From: an uncultured Gammaproteobacteria bacterium
Lineage (GTDB): Bacteria; Patescibacteriota; Patescibacteriia; Magasanikbacterales; GWA2-37-8
Direction: 5' to 3'
Length of the DNA stretch: 32,457 nucleotides
Assembly: GCA_964447755.1 (NCBI GenBank)
Contig: CAYUTM010000002.1
Span: forward strand, 8,992 to 41,448
The translations under genes and the position numbers were made by a program. The stretch's first letter is position 1, and each line of letters begins with the position of its first letter. The notes below the pieces were generated by a model that saw nothing but the letters and a program-made list of their open reading frames with translations, was not told where the DNA came from and did not search any database. This document shows positions 17,788-32,457 of this stretch, piece after piece.

Positions 17788-18036
17788 CTATTTGTGCTCG
17801 GTAGTTACTGGGTTTAGTGTGTATTGAATTTGGATAGTTGCGCGGTAAGACCAATTATATCCGCTTTTATAATCTCGTTCTATTTCAATTTCAAGAACTG
17901 TAAAGGTTGGATTTTCTATACCAAATTTTCTAACCATATCTCTGATTTGTTGATTACAGTCCGTTTCATTAATGCCACAACAGGAAGTATAATAAAAATC
18001 AAATGTTTTTAAGTCTGAACCTTTTACGCCGGTCAT
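17788..18036 (-). CDS. Hypothetical small protein
   Basis: 82 aa with a strong SD (AAGGAGAAACAG-ATG). I recognised no family and no signal peptide. Confidence 0.6.
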   Translation of the reverse strand: MTGVKGSDLKTFDFYYTSCCGINETDCNQQIRDMVRKFGIENPTFTVLEIEIERDYKSGYNWSYRATIQIQYTLNPVTTEHK

Positions 18037-19127: not shown

Positions 19128-19376
19128 ATTCTAGTTTTTTATTTGAACAACCTTCTCCGTTAGATAGTAGCAGTTTGTCTTATTGGCAGCAATATTTTGA
19201 GTAAAATATTAGATGGTTTTTTGTGAGGTAGGGTAGTTTTTTGAAAATCATGGCTTTTTTGTCATACTCTTGACGAAATGAGTGTCTGGTGACACAATAA
19301 TTGCTCCTATCAACGCCAAGGTAAAACTTGGCACAAAGCCGCTTTGTAGCGGATAGTAGCAAGGGAGAGTGCTCGA

Positions 19377-19943
19377 ATGATGAAACTGATGGCTCTGGCT
19401 TTTGTGGGTTTGCTGATCACTGTTGGATGTGGTCCGGTTGAAAAATCCCTACCTGTGCAACAGGTGGATATGGGGCAGAAACTTCCAAGCTGCCCAGACC
19501 TTAAGGTTGTGGTGGCTGAGACTGGCAATCCGGTGGGGCGTTTGGTTCAACCAGGTGAACCGGGTTTTGTTGCTTTGAAAAGCACATTTCAAGGCTCTGG
19601 TGACCCAAAGTGTGGTGTGAGGGTTACCCGATTGAAGCTTATCGTCGATGGCACTGCCAATAGTAATGGCATGGCTTGGCAGCAAGATTCGGGGGGTGGA
19701 TCATTTGCATCGAGCGGAATTGTCACCAACAACAAAGTCGATGCTCAGCCTGGGCATCTGGCTCATTTGGGCAATGGAATGTTGGACATGTACTTCCACG
19801 TCATCCCAGATCCGAACGGGGTTGAGGGAACGACATTCCAGTTTGAGTTGGTGGAAGTGGAGTACACCAATCTCACAACTGGCGACAGTCACCTGCTCAA
19901 TGTCGCGATTTACGGAGGTAACTTCATTTACTCGCGGCCATAA
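19377..19943 (+). CDS. Lipoprotein, unknown function (GC-rich island gene 1)
   Basis: 188 aa. N-terminus MMKLMALAFVGLLITVG|CG is a lipobox-like signal. GGGAGAG SD 7 nt upstream. It has its own hairpin terminator at 19979-20005. Confidence 0.6.
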   Translation: MMKLMALAFVGLLITVGCGPVEKSLPVQQVDMGQKLPSCPDLKVVVAETGNPVGRLVQPGEPGFVALKSTFQGSGDPKCGVRVTRLKLIVDGTANSNGMAWQQDSGGGSFASSGIVTNNKVDAQPGHLAHLGNGMLDMYFHVIPDPNGVEGTTFQFELVEVEYTNLTTGDSHLLNVAIYGGNFIYSRP

Positions 19944-19978
19944 GAGCATTCTGCTCGGTCCGTTCTGTTCGCATTTAA

Positions 19979-20005
19979 GCGCCTCCCTCGAGGTGCTGTT
20001 TTATT
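19979..20005 (+). terminator. Intrinsic terminator candidate
   Basis: GCGCCTC-cctc-GAGGTGC (one G.T pair) followed by tgttttatt. Confidence 0.45.
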
Positions 20006-20012
20006 ACGGCAT

Positions 20013-20047
20013 AAAAAAGCAGTCGGTGTTAAACTGACTGCTTTTTT
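20013..20047 (-). terminator. Intrinsic terminator (A-tract/T-tract flanked)
   Basis: GCAGTCGG (20019-20026) pairs with CTGACTGC (20034-20041), flanked by A6 and T6. It lies downstream of the minus-strand gene 20119-20883 and of hairpin copy B. Confidence 0.6.
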
Positions 20048-20051
20048 GTTG

Positions 20052-20089
20052 CCCCGAAGTTGTCACGTGTAGCGTCGGGGGATTCACGG
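20052..20089 (-). repeat. GC-stem hairpin element, copy B (3' UTR position)
   Basis: CCCCGA (20052-20057) pairs with TCGGGG (20075-20080) around a 17-nt loop, followed by GATTCAC. The architecture matches copy A. Confidence 0.5.
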
Positions 20090-20118
20090 CACGAATACGT
20101 GCGTTTGGTAGGAGATGG

Positions 20119-20883
20119 CTATGGCGTCTTGCCGAGCAGTTCGCGGATGTTGATAGTCATAGAGCCTTGCTTTCCACCACGCTCACCACAGATGAGCAGC
20201 TCTTTGGCCATCTCGTGACCGTCCGCGTCGTACATCGGCTCCGCCCATGAGGTGCACCTGAAGGACGGCTCGTTGTCGAATGGACCAAACTTGGTCTGGT
20301 CGATAACGCAGTACCATTCGAAGGTGCCCTCATCGCCTGTCTCGTAGTTCTGCTCCCCTGCGGCATAGACGAGCACGCCCGAGTAGATACGGGCGCTCTC
20401 CGGGTTAACACAATCCCAGTGGAGCATGTGACGCCCGCCATGCACGGCCCCCCACACCTGATCATTATCTTCATTGGTCATCCCGATGAAGAGGGGGTGC
20501 CCGCCAGAGATGCCAACGATCTTCCGAACGAATTCTGGGCCACCATACTCGGTCGTGCCGTAGACCACCACGTTGTTGGTGAAGTAGTCAGTCTCGTCAC
20601 CAGGGAGCTTGGCAACATAGAGCGGCTTACCACCAACAATGTTGACATCGCGGACATCGGGGAAGTACCTCCCTGTGAACTCAGCATAATCCACACGGAT
20701 ACCTCTCTTGGTGGGCACGATCTGGACGCCCTGGATGGGTTTTGCCGGAGAATCGTCCTTTCTGACTTTCATGGAATGGTTGTTTTCGTAATGGTAGATC
20801 CAGTAGGAAAAGCCTCCCAGCTCTTTGAAGTTTGGCTCGGGGTTACGAGAAATGGGGTGGGTAGTAGCATCCGTCGTGGTCAT
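20119..20883 (-). CDS. Orphan 254-aa protein, no recognisable family (GC-rich island gene 2)
   Basis: Strong C/G third-position bias in this frame only. GGAGGA SD 6 nt from the ATG and a TTGACA-17-TATGTT promoter about 100 nt upstream. No signal peptide. Confidence 0.7.
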   Translation of the reverse strand: MTTTDATTHPISRNPEPNFKELGGFSYWIYHYENNHSMKVRKDDSPAKPIQGVQIVPTKRGIRVDYAEFTGRYFPDVRDVNIVGGKPLYVAKLPGDETDYFTNNVVVYGTTEYGGPEFVRKIVGISGGHPLFIGMTNEDNDQVWGAVHGGRHMLHWDCVNPESARIYSGVLVYAAGEQNYETGDEGTFEWYCVIDQTKFGPFDNEPSFRCTSWAEPMYDADGHEMAKELLICGERGGKQGSMTINIRELLGKTP

Positions 20884-20890
20884 GTTTATT

Positions 20891-20959
20891 CCTCCAATTG
20901 GTATTACGGGTGGTTCCAGTCTTTTCCAAAGACTTGAATCACCCGTTTACATAAGGAGG
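20891..20959 (-). promoter_or_regulatory. Structured 5' leader with candidate anti-SD/SD pairing
   Basis: Composite hairpin at 20901-20950: GTA/TAC, ACGGGTG/CACCCGT and AGTCTTT/AAAGACT around a tcc loop. It is bracketed by CCTCC (20891-20895, the SD on the minus strand) and GGAGG (20955-20959, the anti-SD on the minus strand). Confidence 0.35.
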
Positions 20960-20982
20960 TATTTCACTTTAAAGAACTAGAC

Positions 20983-21011
20983 AACATATCACAAAATTAC
21001 AGCTTTGTCAA
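20983..21011 (-). promoter_or_regulatory. Sigma70-like promoter candidate (TTGACA-17-TGaTATGTT on the minus strand)
   Basis: The reverse complement of 21006-21011 is TTGACA and that of 20983-20988 is TATGTT, with a 17-nt spacer and a TG extension. Confidence 0.5.
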
Positions 21012-21185
21012 CCTTGATCTGTGGCTAAAATTAGCCAAATAGCTAGGTATGGTGTTTTACCACCATCAGCATCTCCGCCAACCTTAGTCATCAACCACTG
21101 AACAAAAAAGCGAATTTGCTCACGCACTGACGCGAAACCTGGTCTTGAAAGACAAAAAGTCAGTTTTTCCAAGCCAAAAACGGCC

Positions 21186-21214
21186 TTGACAAATCATCAA
21201 ATTTGTACTAAAAT
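21186..21214 (+). promoter_or_regulatory. Sigma70-like promoter candidate (TTGACA-17-TAAAAT)
   Basis: TTGACA at 21186-21191, an exact 17-nt spacer, and TAAAAT at 21209-21214. It lies about 110 nt upstream of the ATG at 21327. Confidence 0.55.
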
Positions 21215-21326
21215 TAGATGTTATTTTAACAATTATGTTCGTTGTAATTAGCGAATTTACTTGTGAAAGTAACGTTATCTGGTAATACATCAATGCCGAT
21301 AAAATCGGTAGAAAGGTTTCCGAAAC

Positions 21327-21764
21327 ATGCGTTCATTCATTGGCGCTCTCATCCTGGCTGTTCTCACCTTCTTCAGCGCCCCTCGCGCCCATGCCGCCAC
21401 TCAGGCCGATGTGGCTCGGGTGGTGATGCTGGTGAAGAAACACCGCGACCGAGGTGGAGACTACCAGATGGTTTTCCACAATGGAGGTAAGAAGTACACC
21501 CTCTGGTATGCTGAGGGTGGTACGGTGGCAAAAGTGCTGTCGATCTGGGTCAAGTCGGCGGGGGGTCAAGAGGTGAATTTTTCCGACCGTGGTACAGACG
21601 GCGTCGTTGACTTCGGCGTCAATGGGAAAAGGACCCAGAAAGTGGTGGAAATGCAACTTTGTGATTCTGAGCGTCAGATCGGGAGTGAGTTCTGCCACTA
21701 CTGGCAGGATCAATATGACCAGGCCATCAGCGCCGCGCTGGCGAGCCTAGCTCGCCAAAAGTAA
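21327..21764 (+). CDS. Secreted small protein, unknown function (GC-rich island gene 3)
   Basis: 145 aa with a signal peptide (MRSFIGALILAVLTFFSAPRAHA|AT). Coding lines are very GC-rich. Confidence 0.65.
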   Translation: MRSFIGALILAVLTFFSAPRAHAATQADVARVVMLVKKHRDRGGDYQMVFHNGGKKYTLWYAEGGTVAKVLSIWVKSAGGQEVNFSDRGTDGVVDFGVNGKRTQKVVEMQLCDSERQIGSEFCHYWQDQYDQAISAALASLARQK

Positions 21765-21865
21765 GCGCGAACCACCGCCTACAAACAAGCGGGTGGGGGC
21801 GCTTGCACTTGGCCTCTACTCGTTATAGTTATAAAATATTGTAGCCATAACGAGGACCATGTGCA

Positions 21866-21900: not shown

Positions 21901-21926
21901 TTTGTAAATCAATATTTTTTGATCCG

Positions 21927-22000
21927 TCGGGCTGACAGGACTTGAACCTGCGATCTCTTGCACCCCATGCAAGCGCGATAGCCAACTTCGCTACAGCCCG
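21927..22000 (-). tRNA. tRNA-Pro (anticodon GGG)
   Basis: The 74-nt reverse complement folds by hand as a cloverleaf: acceptor CGGGCTG/CAGCCCG, D stem GCGA/TCGC, anticodon stem CTTGC/GCAAG with loop AT-GGG-GT (U33, G37), T stem GCAGG/CCTGT with loop TTCAAGT, and discriminator A. No CCA is encoded. Confidence 0.9.
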
Positions 22001-22269
22001 ATGTTAATATTTTCATCTATAATTTTGAAAAAACCATTTTTAATATCTCTTTCCAATGCACCATGACTTCGTTTATATTTATGCTCAATTACTCGTGCTT
22101 CTCCCAAAGACTCTGTCTCGCGGTAACCAATCAGCTTGAGCGGTCTTCGATATTTTGTTGATTCAACTTTTCCATTTTCATGTAATTTAAAACGGGCAAA
22201 TACATCCGGGGTTGAGCCGATGTAGTTTTTAAGATCCTTTAAACTTTTGAGCAAATAAACGTATGCCAT
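21991..22269 (-). CDS. Small GIY-YIG (URI domain) nuclease
   Basis: 92 aa from the ATG at 22269. YVYLLKS-x11-YIGST, R..LHENG and E in IEHKYK match the GIY-YIG signature. The last three codons and the TAG stop lie inside the first 10 nt of tRNA-Pro. Confidence 0.75.
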   Translation of the reverse strand: MAYVYLLKSLKDLKNYIGSTPDVFARFKLHENGKVESTKYRRPLKLIGYRETESLGEARVIEHKYKRSHGALERDIKNGFFKIIDENINIGL

Positions 22270-22276
22270 ATTTTTT

Positions 22277-22354
22277 TTGCACCCCGCCGGGCAGAGCCCT
22301 CTGGGCGGCGCCCTCTTAGGCAGAGCCCTCTGGGCGGCGCCCGCCGGGCAGAGC
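22277..22354. repeat. Tandem GC-rich palindromic repeats (2.5 copies)
   Basis: The 24-nt core ggcagagccctctgggcggcgccc occurs at 22290-22313 and 22319-22342, with a partial copy at 22343-22354. CAGAG/CTCTG and GGCGG/CCGCC segments can form hairpins. Confidence 0.8.
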
Positions 22355-22427
22355 AGCCAGTATGAAGGCGTCCTATAGAGGATGAATTCGTTGAGCTCAT
22401 TTAGACTATAATAACCAAAGAATCTTA

Positions 22428-22498
22428 TTGCACCCCTCCGGGCAGAGCCCTCTGGGCGGCGCCCATGCAAGCGCGATAGCCAACTTCGCTACAGCCCG
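22428..22498 (-). pseudogene. Disrupted tRNA-Pro copy: 5' half plus anticodon stem, with a GC-rich repeat inserted in the anticodon
   Basis: In tRNA sense it reads CGGGCTGTAGCGAAGTTGGCTATCGCGCTTGCATGGG, then the insert CGCCGCCCAGAGGGCTCTGCCCGGA, then GGGGTGCAA. The insert is flanked by a CCC/GGG microduplication. The sequence downstream resembles a T-arm only weakly. Confidence 0.6.
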
Positions 22499-22884: not shown

Positions 22885-24393
22885 ATGATAGAGTATCTTA
22901 AATTAAGAGTTATTAATTTTTGCGTTGTGTCTTCCTCCTTATCTACCATCCTCAAAAAAATCACCACACTCTCCAAAAAAGAGAAAACTCCTGTGTACAT
23001 CGTTGGTGGGTACGTGCGGGATTTTTTATTACAGCGTTTGCAGAAAAAAGATCTGGATTTTGTCGTGCTCGGCAGCGGGCTGGAATTTGCCAAAAAATTG
23101 GATGAAACCTTAAAGCAAGCGGGGAGTTTAATAGAGTTCCCGGACTTTGATACTGCGCGTTATTTAATTGGGGAAGGCGAGGATAGGGTAGAGCTAGAAT
23201 TTGCCGGAGCGCGCACCGAGTCATATTCGCCGGATTCAAGAAAGCCAAAAGTAGAACAAACTACCTTGGACGAAGATTTGAAGCGTCGTGATTTTACCGT
23301 CAATGCCATGGCTTTGCCAATAGATGTGTTGGAAAAAATGTTGTCTGGTAAATCATCGATAGAAACATTCCAAAAACATCTCATCGACCCATTTGATGGG
23401 CAAAAAGATTTGGCTGAAAAGATTTTACGAACTCCACTTGACCCTGACGTTACTTTTAAAGAAGACCCGCTGCGCATGTTTCGTGCTATTCGTTTTGCGG
23501 CACAGCTAAATTTTTCTATTGAATTAAAAACCTTGGAATCAATTTACCAAAATCGTGAGCGAATAAAAATTGTGTCCATGGAGCGCGTGCAAGAAGAATT
23601 ACTAAAACTATTTTCATGCGCTCAACCATCTATTGGCTTGGTACTTTTATTCCAAACCCAACTGATGGACATAATCTTGCCCGAAATTTCTGCTCTTGAT
23701 GGAGTAGAGGATGTGTACGGCCATTCGCACAAAAACAATTTAACTCATACGTTCAAAGTTGTAGACAACATTGCGGAGCGCTCGAATAACGTGTGGTTGC
23801 GTTTGGCTGGTTTTTTTCATGACATTGGCAAACCGCCTACCAAAAAATTTCTACCCAAAATCGGCTGGACCTTCCATGCCCATGAATTTGTGGGAAGAAA
23901 AATGATGCGCGTGATTGGTAAACGATTGCGTTTGGCAAATGATAAAACTGATTACTTGTCAAAACTCATTCGTTGGCACATGCAACCTATTAGCTTAATG
24001 GATAAAGGAATTACCGATTCTGCGGTGCGCCGATTGATTGTAAATGTGGGTGAGGAGATTGAAGATTTGTTAGTTTTGGGTCGCAGCGACATTACCACCG
24101 GCAACCCATTTAAAAAAGAAAATCGTTTAAAGAATTATGATTGGCTTGAAACACGAGTAGCGGAAGTAATTGAAAAAGATAAGCTCCGCGCATTCCAATC
24201 ACCGGTGCGGGGCGAGGAAATTATGGCAGTTTGTGGTCTCAAACCAGGGCCAACGGTAGGAAAAATTAAAAAAGCCATTGAGGAGGCAATTTTGAACGGT
24301 GTGGTGCCCAATGATCACGACCCGGCTTTTGAATATTTTGCCTCAATAAAAGACTCTTTTTTAAAAAACATTGCAGCGTGGGAAAAGGCTTAA
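22885..24393 (+). CDS. cca: CCA-adding tRNA nucleotidyltransferase with HD domain
   Basis: 502 aa. VYIVGGYVRDFLL, KDLDFVV, RRDFTVNA and the HD motif FFHDIGKP. This fits the neighbouring tRNA lacking an encoded CCA. Confidence 0.8.
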   Translation: MIEYLKLRVINFCVVSSSLSTILKKITTLSKKEKTPVYIVGGYVRDFLLQRLQKKDLDFVVLGSGLEFAKKLDETLKQAGSLIEFPDFDTARYLIGEGEDRVELEFAGARTESYSPDSRKPKVEQTTLDEDLKRRDFTVNAMALPIDVLEKMLSGKSSIETFQKHLIDPFDGQKDLAEKILRTPLDPDVTFKEDPLRMFRAIRFAAQLNFSIELKTLESIYQNRERIKIVSMERVQEELLKLFSCAQPSIGLVLLFQTQLMDIILPEISALDGVEDVYGHSHKNNLTHTFKVVDNIAERSNNVWLRLAGFFHDIGKPPTKKFLPKIGWTFHAHEFVGRKMMRVIGKRLRLANDKTDYLSKLIRWHMQPISLMDKGITDSAVRRLIVNVGEEIEDLLVLGRSDITTGNPFKKENRLKNYDWLETRVAEVIEKDKLRAFQSPVRGEEIMAVCGLKPGPTVGKIKKAIEEAILNGVVPNDHDPAFEYFASIKDSFLKNIAAWEKA

Positions 24394-24406
24394 TATAGCG
24401 CTTTTA

Positions 24407-24436
24407 TTTGACAAAATAGTCAAAGTATGATAAATA
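24407..24436 (+). promoter_or_regulatory. Promoter candidate (TTGACA-17-TAAATA) overlapped by the inverted repeat TTTGAC-N6-GTCAAA
   Basis: TTGACA at 24408-24413 and TAAATA at 24431-24436. The perfect 6-bp inverted-repeat arms are at 24407-24412 and 24419-24424. Confidence 0.35.
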
Positions 24437-24461
24437 TGAATAATCATACTTTTATTATTTT

Positions 24462-24677
24462 ATGACCAAAAAAATTGACCAAACTTTGGGTACGGTATGT
24501 GGAACAGCTACAGTTGGGCCACGTGGTCAAATCGTTATTCCCAAAGATGCGCGCAGTAGGTTAAATTTAAAAAATGGAGACCAGTTTTTAGTTATTGAGC
24601 ATTTTGGTAAACTTATTTTTATACCAGAAAAAAACATGCGCGACATAATTAAAGAAATTACTAAACATTTATCTTAA
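24462..24677 (+). CDS. AbrB/SpoVT/MazE-family DNA-binding protein
   Basis: 71 aa. GQIVIPKDARSRLNLKNGDQFLV is the looped-hinge-helix signature. Confidence 0.7.
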   Translation: MTKKIDQTLGTVCGTATVGPRGQIVIPKDARSRLNLKNGDQFLVIEHFGKLIFIPEKNMRDIIKEITKHLS

Positions 24678-24687
24678 TTCCTATTTT

Positions 24688-26436
24688 ATGAAATTAGCAT
24701 TTATCAAAAAAAAGAAGTTTTATATCCCGTTTATTATCGTGCTTATCATTTTGTTTTTTGTATACCGTAGTTATAAAAAATCACACCAGCCCCCTACATA
24801 TGAAACCGTTGCGGTTTCACGCGGTAACTTAGTGCAAACAGTTCAGGCTACGGGAAAAATTGAAGCAGTGGATGATTTAGCGTTACGTTTTGAAATACCA
24901 GGAACTGTTGGGTCGGTAATGGTAAAGGACGGTCAATCTGTTAAACAAGGTACTGTTTTAGCTACCCTTAAGTTAGGTGAGCTTAACGCAGCTGTTTCTC
25001 AGGCAAAAGCAAATTTAGATAAACAATTAGCTGGCGCAACAAATGAAGATCGTCGTTATTATGAAGCAGCCATGACCTCAGCAAAAGTCTCGCTTGAACA
25101 GGCTAAAATTGACGCACAAAATAATGTTGCTACTGCCGAAGCAAACGTAGCTAGTGCTAAAAATAATTTAAAGTTAGCAGAGGGTGACGATCAGAGTCAG
25201 ATTGTGGTTCAGGCGTATCAAACAGCGCTTTCACGTTTAAGTGCAAGCATGACAAAGTTAGATGAAGCTCTTTCACAAGCTGATACTATTTTAGGAATGG
25301 ATAATACTATTGCTAATGGTGATATCAAAAATTATTTATCAATTACCGATCCGAATAAATTAGCTGCGGCTAAAGCGAGCTATTTGGAAACAAAACAAGC
25401 TAAAAATCAGGCTAAGCAACAAGTTTCAATTCTTAGCAATTCTAGTGCTCGTGCTGATGTGGATACTGCGCTTTTAACAACTGAAGATGCTCTTGCAAAA
25501 GCAAATATTCTTTTAGCAAATGTGGGTGAAACTCTTATAGCCACTCCTGCTATTGGTTCGCTTACGCAAACAAGTCTGGATGCTAAAAAAAGTGTTATCG
25601 ATGCCACACGGACTTCAGTAAATACAGAATATTCCAGTGTTATCACTCAAAAACAAGCTATTTCTAATGCTAAAAATAGCTTAACAACTTACACTATTGC
25701 TTATAGCAAGGCCTTGAATGATTTGGCTCAAGTACAGGCTAATGCGGATACTTCTATAAAATTAAAGCAGGCAATATACGATCAATCTTTGGCAACCTAC
25801 CAATCAAAAGTTAATCCACCGCGTGATGTGGATGTAGCTTCTTACCGTGCTGCTCTCGCGCAAGCAGTAGCTAGTAGAGATAGGGCTATTATTCGGGCTC
25901 CGATTGATGGCGTGATTGCTACTATTGCTAAAAAACCCGGTGAACTCGTTTCTTCAGTTGATTCGATGATGAGTATTTTATCTCCTCACTATGAAATCAA
26001 AGTTGATATTTCTGAAGTAGATGTACACAAAACAAAATTACAAGATACTGTTTCTGTAACGCTTGATGCGTTTGGTCAAGAAAATAAATTTTCAGGTAAA
26101 GTTTTACTCATTGATTCCGGTCCTACTATTATTCAAGACGTGGTTTATTATAAAGTACGCATTTCTTTAGATGATTCTACTTCAACTCTGGAGGTAAAAT
26201 CTGGAATGACGGCTAATATCACTATTACCACCAATCAAAAACAAAACGTTTTATTTGTACCAGCTCGAAGTGTTAAGGTTAATTCGGATGGTGAACGATA
26301 TGTTACGGTGCTTGAAAATGGTGTAGAACATGATTATGTGGTTAAAATTGGTTTACGAGCCGATGAAGGTAAGCAAGAAATTGTTGAGGGTGTAAACGAA
26401 GGTCAGCAGGTAGTTTTGAGTAAGAAAACAGCGTAA
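24688..26436 (+). CDS. HlyD/MacA-family periplasmic adaptor with very long coiled-coil
   Basis: 582 aa with an N-terminal TM segment. It has a lipoyl-like motif (GTVGSVMVKDGQSVKQGTVLATL ... RAPIDGVIATI) and about 300 aa of A/Q/K/N-rich helical region. Confidence 0.8.
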   Translation: MKLAFIKKKKFYIPFIIVLIILFFVYRSYKKSHQPPTYETVAVSRGNLVQTVQATGKIEAVDDLALRFEIPGTVGSVMVKDGQSVKQGTVLATLKLGELNAAVSQAKANLDKQLAGATNEDRRYYEAAMTSAKVSLEQAKIDAQNNVATAEANVASAKNNLKLAEGDDQSQIVVQAYQTALSRLSASMTKLDEALSQADTILGMDNTIANGDIKNYLSITDPNKLAAAKASYLETKQAKNQAKQQVSILSNSSARADVDTALLTTEDALAKANILLANVGETLIATPAIGSLTQTSLDAKKSVIDATRTSVNTEYSSVITQKQAISNAKNSLTTYTIAYSKALNDLAQVQANADTSIKLKQAIYDQSLATYQSKVNPPRDVDVASYRAALAQAVASRDRAIIRAPIDGVIATIAKKPGELVSSVDSMMSILSPHYEIKVDISEVDVHKTKLQDTVSVTLDAFGQENKFSGKVLLIDSGPTIIQDVVYYKVRISLDDSTSTLEVKSGMTANITITTNQKQNVLFVPARSVKVNSDGERYVTVLENGVEHDYVVKIGLRADEGKQEIVEGVNEGQQVVLSKKTA

Positions 26437-26449
26437 AAAATCATTTTTT

Positions 26450-27175
26450 ATGGCAACTCTTATTGAGATTAAAAATGTAGAAAAAAACTACGAAATTGCT
26501 GAGGTTGTTACACCTGTGTTAAAAGGTCTTAATTTTTCTATTCAAAAAGGGGAGTTTGTCTCTATAATGGGGCCAAGTGGTTCAGGAAAATCAACCTTAA
26601 TGCATATTTTGGGTTTTTTAGATGTGTTGAGTAGTGGTACGTATTTATTTGATGGCAAAGATGTAAGCACATTAACCGATGATGAGTTAGCGCTTATGCG
26701 CAATGAAAAAGTTGGATTTGTATTTCAGGCCTTTAATTTGCTAGCTCGTTCTAGTGCTTTAGAAAATGTGGCTTTACCGCTTTTGTATAGCAAAGTTCCT
26801 AAAGAAAACCGAAATAAAATAGCCAAAGATTTATTAGAAGCAGTTGGATTGTCGCACCGCTTAGAATATTCACCAAATAAATTGTCTGGAGGAGAAAAAC
26901 AACGTGTGGCTATTGCTCGTGCTTTGGTAAATAATCCTCAAATTATTTTTGCCGATGAGCCTACCGGTAATCTTGACTCAAAATCTGGTTTACAGGTGAT
27001 GAAAATTTTGCAAGGTTTAAACGATGATGGACATACCATTGTATTGGTTACACATGAGCGCTCTACTGCTGAACATGCTAAAAGAATTTTAGAAATGAAA
27101 GATGGGGTGCTTATTAAAGATGAAAAAGTTGTTCATCGACAAATTGCTAAAGATAAGGAAGAATTAAAAAAATAA
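26450..27175 (+). CDS. ABC transporter ATP-binding protein (MacB/LolD-type)
   Basis: Walker A GPSGSGKST, signature LSGGEKQRVAIARAL, Walker B IIFADEPTGNLD. Confidence 0.9.
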   Translation: MATLIEIKNVEKNYEIAEVVTPVLKGLNFSIQKGEFVSIMGPSGSGKSTLMHILGFLDVLSSGTYLFDGKDVSTLTDDELALMRNEKVGFVFQAFNLLARSSALENVALPLLYSKVPKENRNKIAKDLLEAVGLSHRLEYSPNKLSGGEKQRVAIARALVNNPQIIFADEPTGNLDSKSGLQVMKILQGLNDDGHTIVLVTHERSTAEHAKRILEMKDGVLIKDEKVVHRQIAKDKEELKK

Positions 27176-27224
27176 TTTTCTTAAAATAAAGAAGCCGACG
27201 ATTCTTTGAACAGTTGACTGTTCA

Positions 27225-27600
27225 TTAAATCGCCGGCCAGATGGCCTTCGTGATGGGGTTAGCCGTGCTCGTCCGCCAGGTCCTTGTAGAAAGCCTTGGC
27301 TTCCGGCAGGTTCGTGTGCCTGAACACATTCCCCATGAAACCGTCCATTTCTTCACGGATGAACTGGACCCTCCCGCCCTGCAGCGCCTTTCGGGCGGTG
27401 TCCTGCGCGGCCTGTGGGAGCTCAGCGATCGCGGCTTGGATCTTGCCACTCCTGAGGAGGTCGAGATACGTAGCCATCTCCTGCTCCAGAGCCTCAATGG
27501 TTCCGGGTCTGAAGAGCGGGTTGACGGTCGGTAGTTTGACTGTATTCATTGAATTGCTCCTTGATACGTCCTCACCGTGGAGGAACAAAATACTATAAGC
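27225..27600. other. Very GC-rich insert inside the efflux operon
   Basis: A hand count gives 44/60 G+C at 27361-27420. AT-rich flanks lie on both sides. Confidence 0.75.
27259..27549 (-). CDS. Orphan 96-aa helical protein encoded antisense to the efflux operon
   Basis: The ATG at 27549 is preceded by AAGGAG (8-nt spacing). There is strong G/C third-position bias in this frame. A TTAACA-17-TATAGT promoter lies upstream. I recognised no family. Confidence 0.6.
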   Translation of the reverse strand: MNTVKLPTVNPLFRPGTIEALEQEMATYLDLLRSGKIQAAIAELPQAAQDTARKALQGGRVQFIREEMDGFMGNVFRHTNLPEAKAFYKDLADEHG

Positions 27601-27619
27601 TACCCTACCACTCTTGTTA
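27591..27619 (-). promoter_or_regulatory. Sigma70-like promoter candidate (TTAACA-17-TATAGT on the minus strand)
   Basis: The reverse complement of 27614-27619 is TTAACA and that of 27591-27596 is TATAGT, with a 17-nt spacer. Confidence 0.45.
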
Positions 27620-27683
27620 ATAGTAAAAAGCCAATTTTCGGCTAAAATTAAAGCAAATAAACAGAAATATTGTTTATAGAGGT

Positions 27684-28922
27684 ATGAATTTCTTCGAAAA
27701 TATTAAAAATGCCTGGGAAATTTTGCGCCGTAATAAAATACGCTCTTTTTTAACCATGCTTGGCATTATCATTGGTGTTATGTCCATGATTGTCATCCTC
27801 TCTGTTGGCGCTGGAGCACAAAGCCTTATTTTAAATCAAGTTAAAAGTCTGGGTTCAAATTTAGTTGGGGTGCTTCCAGGAAAATCTGATGATAAAGGCC
27901 CGCCAGTTGCGGTATTTGGAGTAGTAATTACTTCGTTAACGTATGAAGATGGAAAAGCGCTAATGAATGGAGAATTTCCTGCAATAGAAGCAATGGCTGC
28001 CTATGTGCGAGGCGCAGATTTGGTAACCTGGCAAGAAAATAAGACGGACACAACATTTGTGGGAACTAATGCTGGTTATTTGGAAGTTGAAGACACTAAA
28101 GTTGCTCAGGGTCGTTTTTTTAGTGAAGATGAAGAGCGAAGCTTGAGTCGGGTAGTTGTAATTGGTAGTGATGTAGCCAAGAATTTATTTGGAGACAATT
28201 CAGCTCTTGGAGAAATTATTAAAATAAAAAAACAAAATTTTACGGTTGTTGGAGTAATGCGTTCACGTGGAGTGAGTGGTTTTCAAAATCAAGATAACCA
28301 AGTTTTTGTACCCATAACAACAGCTCAAAAATTGTTGCTCGGTATTAACCATGTAAGTTTTTTACGTGTTAAAATTGCTCGTGCCGATCAGGTAGATTCG
28401 GCAGTTGAGTATATTAAAAATACTTTACGTGATCGTCATAATATTTCTAATGCTGATAACGATGATTTTACTGTTCGTTCGACAAATGAAGGTTTGGATG
28501 TATTAACTTCTATTACTAATGCTCTACGTTTTTTCTTGGCGGCTATTGCAGCAGTATCATTGGTGGTGGGTGGAATTGGCATTATGAATATAATGTTAGC
28601 AGCTGTACAAGAGCGAACCAAAGAGATTGGTTTGCGTAAAGCACTTGGTGCCAGAAGCTCACAAATTACTCTTCAATTTTTAATAGAAACAATTTTTATT
28701 ACTTTTACAGGTGGTGTTATTGGTATTGGGCTCGGAATTATAATTTCAGTTGCGACTGCTAAAATTGCTCAATCGATGGAATATAGCTGGGACTTAGTTA
28801 TTTCTCCTCTTTCTATTATAGTTGGCTGCGGAGTTTCTGTTTTTATTGGCTTATTATTTGGTATTAACCCAGCACGCCGTGCTAGTTCACTTAGCCCTAT
28901 CGAAGCTTTGAGGTATGAATAA
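27684..28922 (+). CDS. ABC transporter permease, FtsX/MacB family
   Basis: 412 aa. N-terminal TM segment, a large extracytoplasmic domain, and a C-terminal FtsX 3-TM bundle (GGIGIMNIMLAAVQERTKEIGLRKALGA). Confidence 0.85.
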   Translation: MNFFENIKNAWEILRRNKIRSFLTMLGIIIGVMSMIVILSVGAGAQSLILNQVKSLGSNLVGVLPGKSDDKGPPVAVFGVVITSLTYEDGKALMNGEFPAIEAMAAYVRGADLVTWQENKTDTTFVGTNAGYLEVEDTKVAQGRFFSEDEERSLSRVVVIGSDVAKNLFGDNSALGEIIKIKKQNFTVVGVMRSRGVSGFQNQDNQVFVPITTAQKLLLGINHVSFLRVKIARADQVDSAVEYIKNTLRDRHNISNADNDDFTVRSTNEGLDVLTSITNALRFFLAAIAAVSLVVGGIGIMNIMLAAVQERTKEIGLRKALGARSSQITLQFLIETIFITFTGGVIGIGLGIIISVATAKIAQSMEYSWDLVISPLSIIVGCGVSVFIGLLFGINPARRASSLSPIEALRYE

Positions 28923-28947
28923 GTAAGCCTTGCACACACACAACATT

Positions 28948-30174
28948 ATGTTTTCCACATACTTACAACTAGTTTTTGATTCACTGAAAAGGCAAAAAAG
29001 CCGTACTGTTTTAACAATGCTCGCCATTAGTATCGGTATTGCTATTGTTATTGTAATTATGGCTGCGGGAAAAGGCATTGAACGGTTAATTATGGGTCAG
29101 CTTGATGTATATGGTGCGGATACTATTAGCATTACTGCTCGGCCACCAAATAAAAGTTCTGGTAGTGGAGATGTGGGCATTACCATTACAAGTTTAAAAG
29201 ATAAAGATATTCAACAAATTGAGCGTTTACCAAATATTAGTGCGGCTTATGGTTCAATTATAAGCCAAGAAGCAGTGAGTTATAATGGTCAGATTAAAAA
29301 AGTATTCGTAATGGGTGAGGGGGCTCGTGCTAGTGATATTGAAAAAATAACGTTTACTAGTGGCAATTTTTTTACACAAGATGACGAAAATTCTTTAAAT
29401 AATGTGGTTGTTTTGGGTTCTGCGGCAAAAGAAAAACTGTTTGGACAACAAGAAGCGGTTGGTCAAATAATGTATATACGCGGGAAAACATTTCGAGTGA
29501 TTGGAGTGTTGGCTCCGCGCGGTTCCGCACTTTTCTTTGATATGGACAACATTCTTATAATCCCCACCAAAACAATGCAAAAAAAATTACTTGGCATTGA
29601 TTATGTAAGTACAGTGAATGCTAAAATGAAAAACGCTTCCGAATCTATTCGCACTAAAGAAGATATAGTTGAAATTTTAAGAGAAAATCATTCTATTAGT
29701 GATCCAAATCGAGATGATTTTGAGGTAAGTACTATGGCTGAAGCGGCCGGTTTAATAGCCAATGTTGCCAGTGGAATTACCTTATTACTGGTTGCTTTGG
29801 TTGGTATTTCACTTGTTGTTGGTGGTGTTGGAATTATGAACATTATGTACGTTTCCGTAGCCGAAAGAACCTTTGAGATTGGTTTGCGCAAATCTCTTGG
29901 TGCCAAAAGAAAAGATATCGTATGGCAATTTTTATTAGAAGCAATAGTGATGACAGTGGGTGGGGGTATAATTGGAGTTCTGGTTGGGGCTTTGCTTGCA
30001 CTGGCTGTTTATGCACTAGCTGTTTCAAGCGGTTTTGCGTGGGTGTACGAAGTTACGTTGTCATCAATTGTTTTATCTGTTGGGTTTTCTGCAATTATTG
30101 GACTCGTTTTTGGACTATATCCAGCACGCAAGGCTTCGCTACTTAGCCCTATTGATGCCTTAAGAAGAGAGTAA
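28948..30174 (+). CDS. ABC transporter permease, FtsX/MacB family (second paralog)
   Basis: Same architecture (GGVGIMNIMYVSVAERTFEIGLRKSLGA). The ATG at 28948 is preferred over the TTG at 28930. Confidence 0.85.
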   Translation: MFSTYLQLVFDSLKRQKSRTVLTMLAISIGIAIVIVIMAAGKGIERLIMGQLDVYGADTISITARPPNKSSGSGDVGITITSLKDKDIQQIERLPNISAAYGSIISQEAVSYNGQIKKVFVMGEGARASDIEKITFTSGNFFTQDDENSLNNVVVLGSAAKEKLFGQQEAVGQIMYIRGKTFRVIGVLAPRGSALFFDMDNILIIPTKTMQKKLLGIDYVSTVNAKMKNASESIRTKEDIVEILRENHSISDPNRDDFEVSTMAEAAGLIANVASGITLLLVALVGISLVVGGVGIMNIMYVSVAERTFEIGLRKSLGAKRKDIVWQFLLEAIVMTVGGGIIGVLVGALLALAVYALAVSSGFAWVYEVTLSSIVLSVGFSAIIGLVFGLYPARKASLLSPIDALRRE

Positions 30175-30222
30175 AACCCTACCTCTTGCCCTAATAGTAC
30201 GGGAGTGTTAGATTTATTTCGT

Positions 30223-32013
30223 ATGACCGATACTCAAACAATCAAAGATCGCATAGACTTGGTGCAATTCATTCAAGAATATTTGCCTTTAAAAAAAACC
30301 GGGGCAAATTGGAAGGCAAATTGTCCGTTTCATCAAGAAAAATCTCCTTCTTTCATGGTGCATCCAGAAAAACAAATTTGGCATTGTTTTGGTTGTAGTA
30401 AGGGTGGTGATATTTTTACATTTGTTCAAGAAATGGAGGGGCTTGGTTTTCCCGAAACTTTAAAAATGTTGGCAGACCGTGCGGGTGTAAAAATTGATGT
30501 AAAAAATTCAGAGATAAAAAATAGTCAACGAAATAGATTGCTAGAAATAACTAAAAAAGCAGCATATTTTTTTCACAATTTTTTATTAGAAGTTCCAGCT
30601 AATAAACCTGCTCGAGATTATTTAGAACAACGTGGTTTAAAACCAGGAACAATTATAGATTGGCAGATTGGTTTTAGCCCAGATCAATGGGATCTTTTAA
30701 CAAAATATTTGGTAAAGCATGGATTTTTGATCAATGATTTGGTAGATGCTGGTTTAACTATAAAAAAACAGGATGAACATTCCGGATCTGTTCGATACTA
30801 CGATCGTTTCCGAGGTCGGATAATGTTTCCTTTAAGTGATGTGCATGGAAATGTAATTGGCTTTACTGGGCGCATATTGGTTGAAAAACCAGATACAGGG
30901 GGAAAATATATCAATTCGCCACAAACCATGCTCTATGATAAATCTAGAATGTTATATGGTTTGCATAAAGCAAAAACTAACATAAAGATACACAATAAAG
31001 TCTTGATTGTGGAAGGTCAAATGGATGTGGTAACGTCTCATCAAGAAGGGATGGGTTATGTGGTAGCAGCTTCAGGAACGGCCTTAACGGGCGAGCAAGT
31101 GCGACTATTAAAACGCTATACAACTGAAATTATAATGGCTTTTGACGGTGACAATGCGGGAGAAAATGCTGGTAAAAGGGGGATAGAGGTGGCTGTGGAA
31201 GAAGGAATGCATGTAAAGGTAGTTAAAATACCTGCTGGTTTGGGAAAGGATGCTGATGAGTGTATTAAAAAAGATAAAAAGAAATGGTTTGACTGTGTTG
31301 AACATGCGGTTGATAGTATGGATTGGTATTTTGATGTTGCCACGAATCATTTGAATAGTAACGATCCTCGAAGCAAACAAAAAGCGAGTGAGTTTTTGTT
31401 GGGGCACATTGCGCGAATACCTCATGTTGTTGAACAAGAGCATTGGTTGGAAAAATTAGCCCAACTTATTTTTATTGATGCTAGTATTCTTCGAGAAGAA
31501 CTAGTGAAAATTAGAAATAAGCCAAAACAACAGACCCATTACAATGACCGAAATAACAAAGCTGTGGTTTTAAAAAAGCCGGATGTAACAGATAGTTATA
31601 CATTTTTGGTGCAAATGTTTTGGTCGCTTTTGTGTAAATTTCCCACACTTTATGCTTCGTTTCAAAAAGATATACGGGCAGAGTATTTTGAGGAAACAAC
31701 CCTCAAGTCCCTTTACGAGATTTGGCAAAGGTACTATAATAAACCTGCGTTCACCATAAAAGACGTCTCTTTAGGCTTTTTACAGGCAAATCTTGAGGAT
31801 ATGACCGATTTTTTGCTTATGCTAGCCGACAAAGAATACGAGGAAATCACAAGTAAAGATGCAGCTGAGGAGCTTGCTAAACTACTTCAACGTATTAGTC
31901 TTGAATGGACCAAAAAGAGGCGTAAGTTTATTGAATTTTCACTGAAAAAATCGGAAAAAGAAAAAAATGTGACCGAAACAACGCGGCTTTTACATTATTT
32001 ACAATCTTTATAA
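30223..32013 (+). CDS. dnaG: DNA primase
   Basis: CHC2 zinc finger (CPFHQEKSPSFMV...WHCFGCSKGGD) and TOPRIM motifs (LIVEGQMDV, AFDGDNAG). The ATG at 30223 is preferred over the GTG at 30205. Confidence 0.9.
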   Translation: MTDTQTIKDRIDLVQFIQEYLPLKKTGANWKANCPFHQEKSPSFMVHPEKQIWHCFGCSKGGDIFTFVQEMEGLGFPETLKMLADRAGVKIDVKNSEIKNSQRNRLLEITKKAAYFFHNFLLEVPANKPARDYLEQRGLKPGTIIDWQIGFSPDQWDLLTKYLVKHGFLINDLVDAGLTIKKQDEHSGSVRYYDRFRGRIMFPLSDVHGNVIGFTGRILVEKPDTGGKYINSPQTMLYDKSRMLYGLHKAKTNIKIHNKVLIVEGQMDVVTSHQEGMGYVVAASGTALTGEQVRLLKRYTTEIIMAFDGDNAGENAGKRGIEVAVEEGMHVKVVKIPAGLGKDADECIKKDKKKWFDCVEHAVDSMDWYFDVATNHLNSNDPRSKQKASEFLLGHIARIPHVVEQEHWLEKLAQLIFIDASILREELVKIRNKPKQQTHYNDRNNKAVVLKKPDVTDSYTFLVQMFWSLLCKFPTLYASFQKDIRAEYFEETTLKSLYEIWQRYYNKPAFTIKDVSLGFLQANLEDMTDFLLMLADKEYEEITSKDAAEELAKLLQRISLEWTKKRRKFIEFSLKKSEKEKNVTETTRLLHYLQSL

Positions 32014-32032
32014 AAGCTTAATCCACTCTCCA

Positions 32033-32457
32033 TGCCTGCAAAAAAGACCTCTAAAAAACCTAGCAAGCATACTGTTTTAAAAAATAGTAAATCGCTAAAA
32101 AATAAACCCAAAACGCAAGCTTCCGTTAAGAAAAAAGTTTCTAAAAAAGTTGTTCCCAAAACTTCAGCGATTAAAAAAATAAAAAAAACTCCTAAGAGTT
32201 CGCTTGTTAAAAAAACCAAAAACACACCTGCTCAGGTGGTGCACCAACCTATTGTTGAGCCGACCCTAGAAGCTATCTGGGATCTCCTTATAAAAGGACG
32301 TAATCGTGGATTTATTACCGATATAGAACTAGATCGCGTTATGCCATTTCCAGAATATTACCTTGATTTACATGAAGGTTTTTTGGATTTAATCGACAAG
32401 CATGGGGTTTCACTTGTAGATAGTTCCACAGCACTACTTGGGGTTCACAAAGAGAGA
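32033..32457 (+). CDS. rpoD: RNA polymerase primary sigma factor, N-terminal part with lysine-rich extension (3' end outside the window)
   Basis: Open frame from the ATG at 32033 to the window edge. Classical dnaG-rpoD synteny. After a lysine-rich tail of about 65 aa, the segment GFITDIELDRVMP...LDLIDKHGVSLVD resembles the region 1.1/1.2 entry of sigma70 proteins. Confidence 0.6.

Follow-up and report, generated by a model that had tools for sequence, protein, structure and literature searches.

The small antisense gene that separates the ATPase gene from the permease genes in an efflux operon of the HlyD/MacB type, carried by an AT-rich, Patescibacteria-like genome, is a real coding sequence, foreign in composition, which was inserted into the operon and is inherited across strains. 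It lies in a stretch of 32,457 nucleotides (nt) from contig CAYUTM010000002.1 of assembly GCA_964447755.1, here called the window, and encodes a protein of 96 amino acids (aa). We regard it as a horizontally acquired, self-contained and monocistronic accessory gene, brought in by an ordinary rather than a new mechanism, and we put the probability of this reading at roughly 0.68. A unit comprising promoter, leader, ribosome-binding site, a 96-codon open reading frame (ORF) and an intrinsic terminator, all serving one cistron, would have entered by horizontal transfer out of a gene pool rich in G+C. It would then have lodged in the short ATPase-permease spacer of its host, in an ancestor of at least two strains that are about 95% identical. 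Weak purifying selection, intrinsic to the family, would have acted on it since, with a ratio (omega) of nonsynonymous (dN) to synonymous (dS) divergence of about 0.4-0.5 in both types of host.

A coding sequence of foreign composition

The efflux operon has the order membrane-fusion protein (MFP), ATPase, permease, permease, and the small gene stands before the first of the two MacB-type permeases. According to the ORF coordinates, the gap between the ATPase stop codon (27175) and the start of permease 1 (27684) is 508 bp long, as the earlier note on this DNA had it, and the antisense ORF described there indeed runs from an ATG to a stop codon on the minus strand (Table 1). An alternative TTG start at 27588, which is without a ribosome-binding site, would give a product of 109 aa. 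Exact-sequence look-ups of the 96-aa, 109-aa and ATPase products matched no record.

The gene is set apart from its surroundings by its composition. The window has about 36% G+C, the exceptions being the region from 19.2 to 22.5 kb and a single 300-nt bin at 27301-27600 (56%). G+C content of the ORF is 59.1%, compared with 35-38% in the operon genes, and its G+C fractions at the first, second and third codon positions (GC1, GC2 and GC3) are 0.63, 0.38 and 0.76, compared with about 0.50, 0.38 and 0.24. A hand count of 44 G+C in one 60-nt line, made in the earlier note together with the remark on third-position bias, proved correct for 27370-27429, the two 30-mers of which stand at 0.77 and 0.70. 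Relative synonymous codon usage is anti-correlated with that of the host genes (r = -0.35). Such deviation in both composition and codon usage is a recognised mark of a transferred gene. None of the plus-strand frames has better coding statistics; the 97-aa ORF on that strand is a mirror frame (GC1 0.77, GC3 0.67) with weaker periodicity.

Evidence for translation comes from a strain about 95% identical to that of the window. Its allele of the gene (P0001, on Logan contig L081) occupies the same site, between the same ATPase and permease genes. These two genes have about 95% nt identity between the strains; the ORF has 77%, and its proteins 70%. Differences in the ORF are distributed 19/13/33 over the three codon positions, compared with 1/0/12 in the ATPase gene and 2/2/28 in the permease gene. 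For the ORF, dN is 0.21 and dS 0.50-0.59 (omega 0.35-0.44), while the flanks have a dN of 0.005, a dS of 0.21-0.24 and an omega of 0.02-0.045 (dN 0.005 and dS 0.24 for the ATPase gene). The codon-position pattern and an omega of about 0.4 therefore indicate a translated sequence under moderate constraint. The junctions of the insert, the support for which had been a concern of the earlier note, are the same in six other assemblies, namely L081 and five assemblies from JGI that carry the L081-type allele (L217-L221). Because the junctions are common to independent assemblies, an assembly chimera is excluded.

These observations bear on the idea that there is no gene here at all, the gap being occupied instead by a structured RNA rich in G+C, by a repeat element or by an assembly chimera in which several frames are open by chance. 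Many reading frames do stay open where GC-rich DNA lies in an AT-rich genome, five ORFs of 90-109 aa overlap in this case, and the protein is without any known family. However, Rfam returned nothing for the gap at the gathering threshold or up to E = 10, the window holds no second copy, and the same junctions recur in seven independent assemblies. The pattern of substitutions by codon position and the omega of 0.4 point to coding, and the protein has significant homologues (described below). We consider this idea already effectively refuted.

Insertion into the efflux operon

What the junction looks like elsewhere was read from homologues of the permease, scanned with one genome per species. 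This gave 80 loci, and the 60 in which an ATPase gene precedes the permease were used to measure spacers; values near -1215 bp were read as ATPase-permease fusions without an intervening stop and counted as uninterrupted. The spacer measures between -29 and +108 bp in 58 of these 60 loci, with a median of -4, which agrees with the suggestion of the earlier note that homologous operons would have an uninterrupted junction. In the four closest loci, which share the MFP-ATPase-permease-permease order, it is 35, -1, 25 and 13 bp. A member of the small gene's family is encoded in none of the 80. Because the homologous spacers are short, the 508-bp gap with its antisense gene is the derived state, and this absence from the orthologous position in other lineages is a further mark of transfer. 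The closest permease homologues in the scan are 50-56% identical and come from Patescibacteria-type metagenome-assembled genomes (MAGs), with no close sequenced host species among them.

Since the gene is also carried by the strain about 95% identical, it was inserted before the two strains separated. Presence of the same gene at the same position in relatives, which the earlier note had named as a point that would tell against its reading, thus extends to this one strain and is limited to that shallow clade. The locus offers a clean, well-bounded case in which a single foreign gene splits an ATPase-permease pair that is normally coupled in translation, and does so in an ultra-small, streamlined genome. 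A candidate target-site duplication (27165-27191 compared with 27624-27653) was rejected, as it was not significant (p about 0.07).

The two exceptions among the 60 loci each have a small extra gene in the spacer, on the same strand as the operon (L005, 4353-4755, and L063, 5544-6000). The ORF in L005 encodes a hydrophobic product of 98 aa, probably a membrane protein, and that in L063 a product of 127 aa; the ATPase-permease junction occasionally takes up small genes. Directly 5' of the membrane-fusion gene in the window lies a 71-aa gene of the MazE/AbrB type (SpoVT-AbrB fold; 24462-24677), which has 98-99% identity to its counterpart in the relative and possibly regulates the operon.

A new and very rare protein family

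A single-sequence word-index protein search found no match for the window protein. Its relatives were recovered by an exhaustive HMMER search of 1.84 billion representative proteins followed by a profile search, with about 15 billion proteins covered overall. HMMER returned P0001 (96 aa, 70% identical, E 1.5e-36), P0002 (86 aa, 35% identical, E 6.6e-5) and P0003 (90 aa, 38% identical, E 1.3e-4), and the profile search added P0004 and P0005, with E values down to 1e-24 in that search. The family, which is new, very rare and unannotated, is made up of the window protein and P0001-P0005, or six clusters among about 15 billion predicted proteins. The term orphan, used in the earlier note, is apt in so far as the protein has no recognisable family, and fails in that five other clusters exist. 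All six members align end to end and end in an invariant DEHG, and its definition by this C-terminus gives the locus part of its interest. Members P0002-P0005 have 33-36% protein identity to the window protein, and their DNA is barely alignable to its gene. Strong ribosome-binding sites precede the ATG in the homologue loci that were read. Protein-pattern scans of metagenome and viral contigs found no additional family members.

Three of the homologues (P0003, P0004 and P0005) are found in genomes of about 63% G+C, where their composition is native, and it is for this reason that a foreign, GC-rich origin of the window gene fits. The homologue in these genomes is again antisense, with an epmA-like tRNA-synt_2 gene on one side and efp on the other, at a site downstream of rpsF-ssb-rpsR; such epmA-like/efp loci were read in MAGs of 63% G+C labelled only as "bacterium" (L084, 5464-7712, and L222, 9395-11645). 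P0002 is encoded on a short contig (L082) with AT-richer flanks, where a single neighbour was called, a convergent ORF different from those at the other loci. At every locus that shows the genes on both sides, the gene is monocistronic, and its neighbourhoods (the MacB operon and epmA-efp) are functionally unrelated. Members from the GC-rich hosts have an omega of 0.44-0.55, compared with 0.11-0.16 for the neighbouring epmA-like gene. Their dS of 0.29-0.42 is lower than that of the epmA-like gene (0.74-1.0), which is the opposite of what is found in the window's lineage.

Divergence between strains and the origin of the gene

The two strains differ most over a hyper-divergent block that takes in the 3' spacer, the ORF and the ribosome-binding-site region (Table 1). 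When 24262-32456 is compared with the relative in 150-nt bins, identity is 85-99% everywhere except for the three bins that span the ORF, where it falls to 73-82%. The edges are abrupt. On one side, the hairpin is 98% identical and the 3' spacer next to it 54% identical with two indels; on the other side of the ORF, 27567-27602 is 100% identical. Weak constraint, intrinsic to the family, largely explains the block.

Several points nonetheless weigh against our reading. With a dS of 0.5-0.6, the ORF stands about 2.5-fold above its flanks (0.22). Among the 66 differences between the window and L081 in the ORF, 44% are transitions and 29% are exchanges of G and C (G<->C), compared with 74% and 4% in the flanks (Fisher test on the G<->C fraction, p = 5e-9). 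The proportions are 63% and 12% in two GC-rich genes of similar divergence from the island at 19.2-22.5 kb (Fisher test, p = 0.002), and about 60-70% and 10-20% among the GC-rich-host homologues themselves. Simple amelioration in situ predicts neither the raised dS nor the excess of G<->C. The excess may stem from replacement of alleles between the conserved arms, from selection that favours codons ending in G or C, or from noise in a small sample (n = 66). As to the transfer, the nearest relatives with an uninterrupted junction share only 50-56% permease identity, and the sole close relative (about 95%) carries the gene. No close donor was found among the 1.84 billion representative proteins, the nearest GC-rich-host homologues are only 33-36% identical, and the direction and timing of transfer would thus be deduced from composition alone. 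Lastly, the role of the protein is a guess, and its structure model has only moderate confidence.

The same data have suggested a different history, that of an exchangeable micro-cassette. In this scheme the promoter-leader and the hairpin would serve as homology arms or recognition sites, and the ORF would be repeatedly swapped for divergent alleles from a pool, through allelic replacement or balancing selection, a route that would fit an immunity- or antitoxin-type protein under diversifying selection. The abrupt identity edges, the raised dS and a G<->C-rich spectrum that resembles neither the flanks nor the other GC-rich genes all speak for it, as does contig L082, which shares the lower stem and tail of the hairpin (a 13-nt exact match plus 7 nt) though its ORF is only 31-36% identical. 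However, just two alleles are known at the locus, and omega is below 1 and equal to the family baseline of 0.44-0.55, so that weak constraint explains most of the excess amino-acid divergence. Some increase in dS, about 1.8-fold by a rough estimate of our own rather than a computation, should be shown in any case by a GC-rich gene under AT-biased mutation. The putative direct repeat at the flanks is the non-significant one given above, and there is no recombinase among the window ORFs scanned. When metagenome and viral contigs were scanned with the hairpin pattern GCCGGCG-N25-35-TCGTCGGCTTCTT, 128 matches were obtained, which lay essentially all in GC-rich coding DNA, as expected of chance, and none of which adjoins a family member. 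We consider repeated exchange of this kind unlikely. Quite unlikely, in turn, is the claim that the locus represents an unrecognised class of minimal exchangeable cassette, in which a conserved promoter-leader and a two-tier hairpin, set antisense between co-transcribed genes, would carry a DEHG-tailed cargo swapped under diversifying selection (an orphan immunity-like factor, for example), with the downstream genes reliant on read-through. Should the sharp-edged hyper-divergence come from replacement of alleles, recombination between strains of uncultured Patescibacteria could conveniently be followed at this locus.

Known mobile systems were also considered. Integron gene cassettes are similar in that a small ORF is followed by an imperfect palindromic hairpin, the structure of which is kept between the distant window and L082. 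Unlike an attC site, the window hairpin, when read directly, is without the RYYYAAC/GTTRRRY cores (R'' and R'), and the U-run that follows it makes it read as a terminator. Furthermore, the ORF has a promoter-like site of its own in place of the promoterless array of such cassettes, and there is no integrase (intI) among the window ORFs scanned; an integron cassette was rejected on these grounds. A target of a diversity-generating retroelement was rejected as well. The 32-kb window has no second copy of the block, no reverse transcriptase domain was found among its ORFs scanned, and the differences are of all types, with G<->C the largest transversion class, and are not adenine-specific.

To return to acquisition of a single gene, genomic islands and genes transferred one at a time have been described by the hundred in aquifer Patescibacteria genomes, and horizontal transfer, including that of individual genes, is already well documented in this group (PMC12455944). 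The window gene resembles these single-gene islets in its atypical composition and codon usage, its patchy distribution, its absence from homologous loci of other lineages and its lack of an assigned function. It differs from them in being antisense inside an operon spacer instead of lying in an island or beside a tRNA gene, in having brought or acquired its own promoter and terminator, and in the presence of two alleles only 70% identical at the same site in strains about 95% identical. The only unusual aspects are the sharp-edged hyper-divergence and the odd substitution spectrum. As it stands, the locus is a modest curiosity that opens no new question.

Putative expression signals

The gene has putative signals for both initiation and termination of transcription, their functions being predicted from the sequence (Table 1). 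A sigma-70-like TTAACA-17-TATAGT promoter, proposed in the earlier note, is present. Four promoter-like sites occur in 1.6 kb, compared with a mean of 2.9 in shuffled sequence, so that the motif alone proves little. In L081, the -10 element is identical and the -35 element is TTGACA, and the promoter reading gains weight because the site is kept in this relative. The AAGGAG Shine-Dalgarno sequence of the earlier note was likewise found, 7 nt 5' of the ATG. Within the leader, 27550-27566 has diverged from L081 with an indel, while the wider region 27567-27683 holds 5 mismatches. A riboswitch or thermosensor in the leader was rejected, as its fold is no better than that of shuffled sequences (z -1.0).

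Downstream of the ORF lies a two-tier hairpin that was absent from the description in the earlier note. On the minus strand its folding energy is -28.9 kcal/mol (z = -5.3; 0 of 200 shuffles as stable), and it is followed by the tail UUCUUUAUUUU; a stable stem-loop with an immediate U-run is what defines a Rho-independent terminator. No U-run follows the hairpin on the plus strand. A scan with a simple terminator consensus missed it because its stem has more than 20 pairs and an internal loop. The motif occurs once in the window, and the copy in L081 has a single mismatch. The hairpin in L082 agrees with that of the window in the lower stem (GCCGGCG/CGTCGGC), in the position of the internal loop and in the tail (UUCUU.AUUU), with compensatory changes elsewhere in the stem, and for this reason the ORF and the terminator appear to travel together. 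A second, weak terminator-like hairpin, just upstream of the promoter, is of uncertain significance, being the one such site in 1.6 kb where shuffled sequence has a mean of 1.8.

Table 1. Features of the small gene and of the operon genes on either side (positions in the window)
Feature	Position	Strand	Remarks
ABC ATPase gene	26450..27175	plus	Pfam ABC_tran, E 4e-32; 5' of the insertion and convergently oriented to the small gene
Two-tier hairpin	27194..27237	minus	44-nt imperfect palindrome; with U-run 27183-27193, putative intrinsic terminator
Hyper-divergent block	27238..27566	minus	3' spacer, ORF and ribosome-binding-site region, between the conserved hairpin and the leader
96-aa ORF	27259..27549 (stop included)	minus	ATG at 27549, stop at 27259
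5' leader	27550..27586	minus	small CCUC/GAGG hairpin 27567-27583; AAGGAG ribosome-binding site 27559-27564
Sigma-70-like promoter TTAACA-17-TATAGT	27592..27620	minus	10/12 consensus positions; putative function
Weak terminator-like hairpin	27629..27643	minus	6 pairs (3 G-C), then T-run; just upstream of the small gene's promoter
MacB-type permease 1	27684..28922	plus	Pfam MacB_PCD and FtsX; divergent from the small gene's promoter region

Antisense arrangement and the operon

The insertion would have removed the tight juxtaposition of the ATPase and permease genes. There is no plus-strand promoter-like site in 27550-27683, ahead of permease 1. Since the hairpin is predicted to terminate the minus strand only and no plus-strand promoter was detected, transcription of the permeases probably reads through the antisense gene. 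It is plausible that transcription is convergent and that sense and antisense transcripts pair.

It could be argued from this that the insert is primarily a cis-regulatory device, in which antisense or convergent transcription insulates or tunes the downstream gene (the permeases in the window and efp in the GC-rich hosts) and the encoded protein is secondary. The same forward-reverse-forward topology, with a spacer of about 440-520 bp, is found in two unrelated coupled pairs, ATPase/permease and epmA-like/efp, and with a terminator on the minus strand only and no separate permease promoter detected, sense and antisense transcripts should overlap. However, two instances are not significant; by our own arithmetic the topology would arise in two contexts by chance about 1 time in 16, which is not compelling. 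Moreover, the protein is conserved across 33-36% identity with an invariant C-terminus and an omega below 1, which shows that the protein itself is under selection. A mainly regulatory insert is therefore, in our judgement, very unlikely.

In excludon-type or convergent-transcription regulation by antisense units, an oppositely oriented unit lies between co-directional genes and gives rise to overlapping read-through transcripts. The window gene is likewise oppositely oriented between co-directional genes, and its sequence is compatible with such regulation. It differs in being a foreign insertion that codes for a conserved protein. If the antisense topology does matter, the locus would be a natural case of an operon rewired through insertion.

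The protein product

The window protein, of about 10 kDa, was predicted in the earlier note to be all-helical and to belong to no recognisable family, and both predictions held. An AlphaFold2 model built on a 4-sequence alignment has five helices, with a mean predicted local distance difference test score (pLDDT) of 81 and a predicted template modelling score of 0.52; a single-sequence structure model reached a pLDDT of only 59. All family members are acidic (isoelectric points of 5.0-5.6), soluble and not strongly hydrophobic overall. Pfam, NCBIfam, PHROGs and PADLOC gave no significant match for the family, sequence-profile searches of the PDB returned nothing better than E of about 0.15, and Foldseek searches of the PDB and BFVD nothing better than E of about 1.2. 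A match to the HhH region of DprA_N was sub-threshold (best E 0.0056, in 2 of 6 members) and was rejected as evidence.

The most likely role, in which our confidence is low, is that of a soluble, mildly acidic five-helix factor that would bind a protein in trans and be unrelated to efflux. A trans-acting role of this kind is suggested because the gene is always solitary, because its neighbourhoods are unrelated and because the protein is acidic, not basic. As a working idea, also held with low confidence, the C-terminal DEHG may be a conserved docking or metal-binding tail. The protein is comparable to orphan immunity- or antitoxin-like small helical proteins in being small, acidic, helical, fast-evolving, patchy in distribution and solitary. 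In contrast to them, it matches no toxin-antitoxin, immunity or defence model in Pfam or PADLOC, has no toxin gene near it, and has a homologue in GC-rich hosts that is stably syntenic between housekeeping genes. A component of a type II toxin-antitoxin or defence system was rejected, with no match in Pfam, NCBIfam or PADLOC and no bicistronic partner at the loci with both neighbours visible.

The GC-rich island genes

The earlier note had also placed the small gene in the same style as three GC-rich genes of the island 6-8 kb away, and had taken the two together as a sign of a recurrent mechanism of cassette acquisition. Neither claim was upheld. The island ORFs (188, 254 and 145 aa) are GC-rich, with GC3 of 0.52, 0.70 and 0.65, and have no family in Pfam, NCBIfam or PHROGs. 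Their codon usage correlates only weakly with that of the gap ORF (r 0.11-0.33), and GC3 ranges from 0.52 to 0.76 across the four genes. No flanking motif is common to the island genes and the gap gene, whose hairpin and leader motifs occur nowhere else in the window. The window ORFs that were scanned include no integrase or recombinase, transposase or reverse transcriptase. The island adjoins a tRNA-Pro gene, as classical islands do, while the gap gene has no tRNA neighbour, and the divergence of the island genes from the relative is transition-dominated. We see two separate acquisitions and no evidence of a shared mechanism.

The island (19200-21800) is also present in the relative that is about 95% identical (L214-L216). 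Its divergence is mosaic, with 99% identity at 19502-19701 and as little as 65-75% in places within the genes for the 254- and 145-aa proteins. The homologue search, made for the 254-aa protein only, placed it in just two clusters among 5.8 billion. An exact-sequence look-up of P0006, which is 100% identical to this protein, matched no record, and a viral origin was rejected, as no viral relative was found. Between the convergent island genes at 19377-19943 (plus) and 20119-20883 (minus) there is a perfect hairpin at 20010-20050, flanked by runs of A and T (aaaaaagcagtc...gactgctttttt), which looks like a bidirectional terminator.

At the tRNA gene itself (tRNA-Pro(GGG), 21926-22000, minus), the first 37 nt are perfectly repeated at 22462-22498. 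Between the two copies is an insert of 461 bp, in which three GC-rich repeats, each about 40 nt long (22274-22464), accompany an ORF of the GIY-YIG type (Pfam E 7e-8). The stretch 21926-22498 has the look of a small GIY-YIG element that settled at the tRNA gene. Elsewhere in the window, an AT-rich ORF of 82 aa and no known family (17788-18036, minus) is hyper-divergent from the relative, with 67% nt identity, and fast-evolving accessory genes are thus not solely GC-rich.

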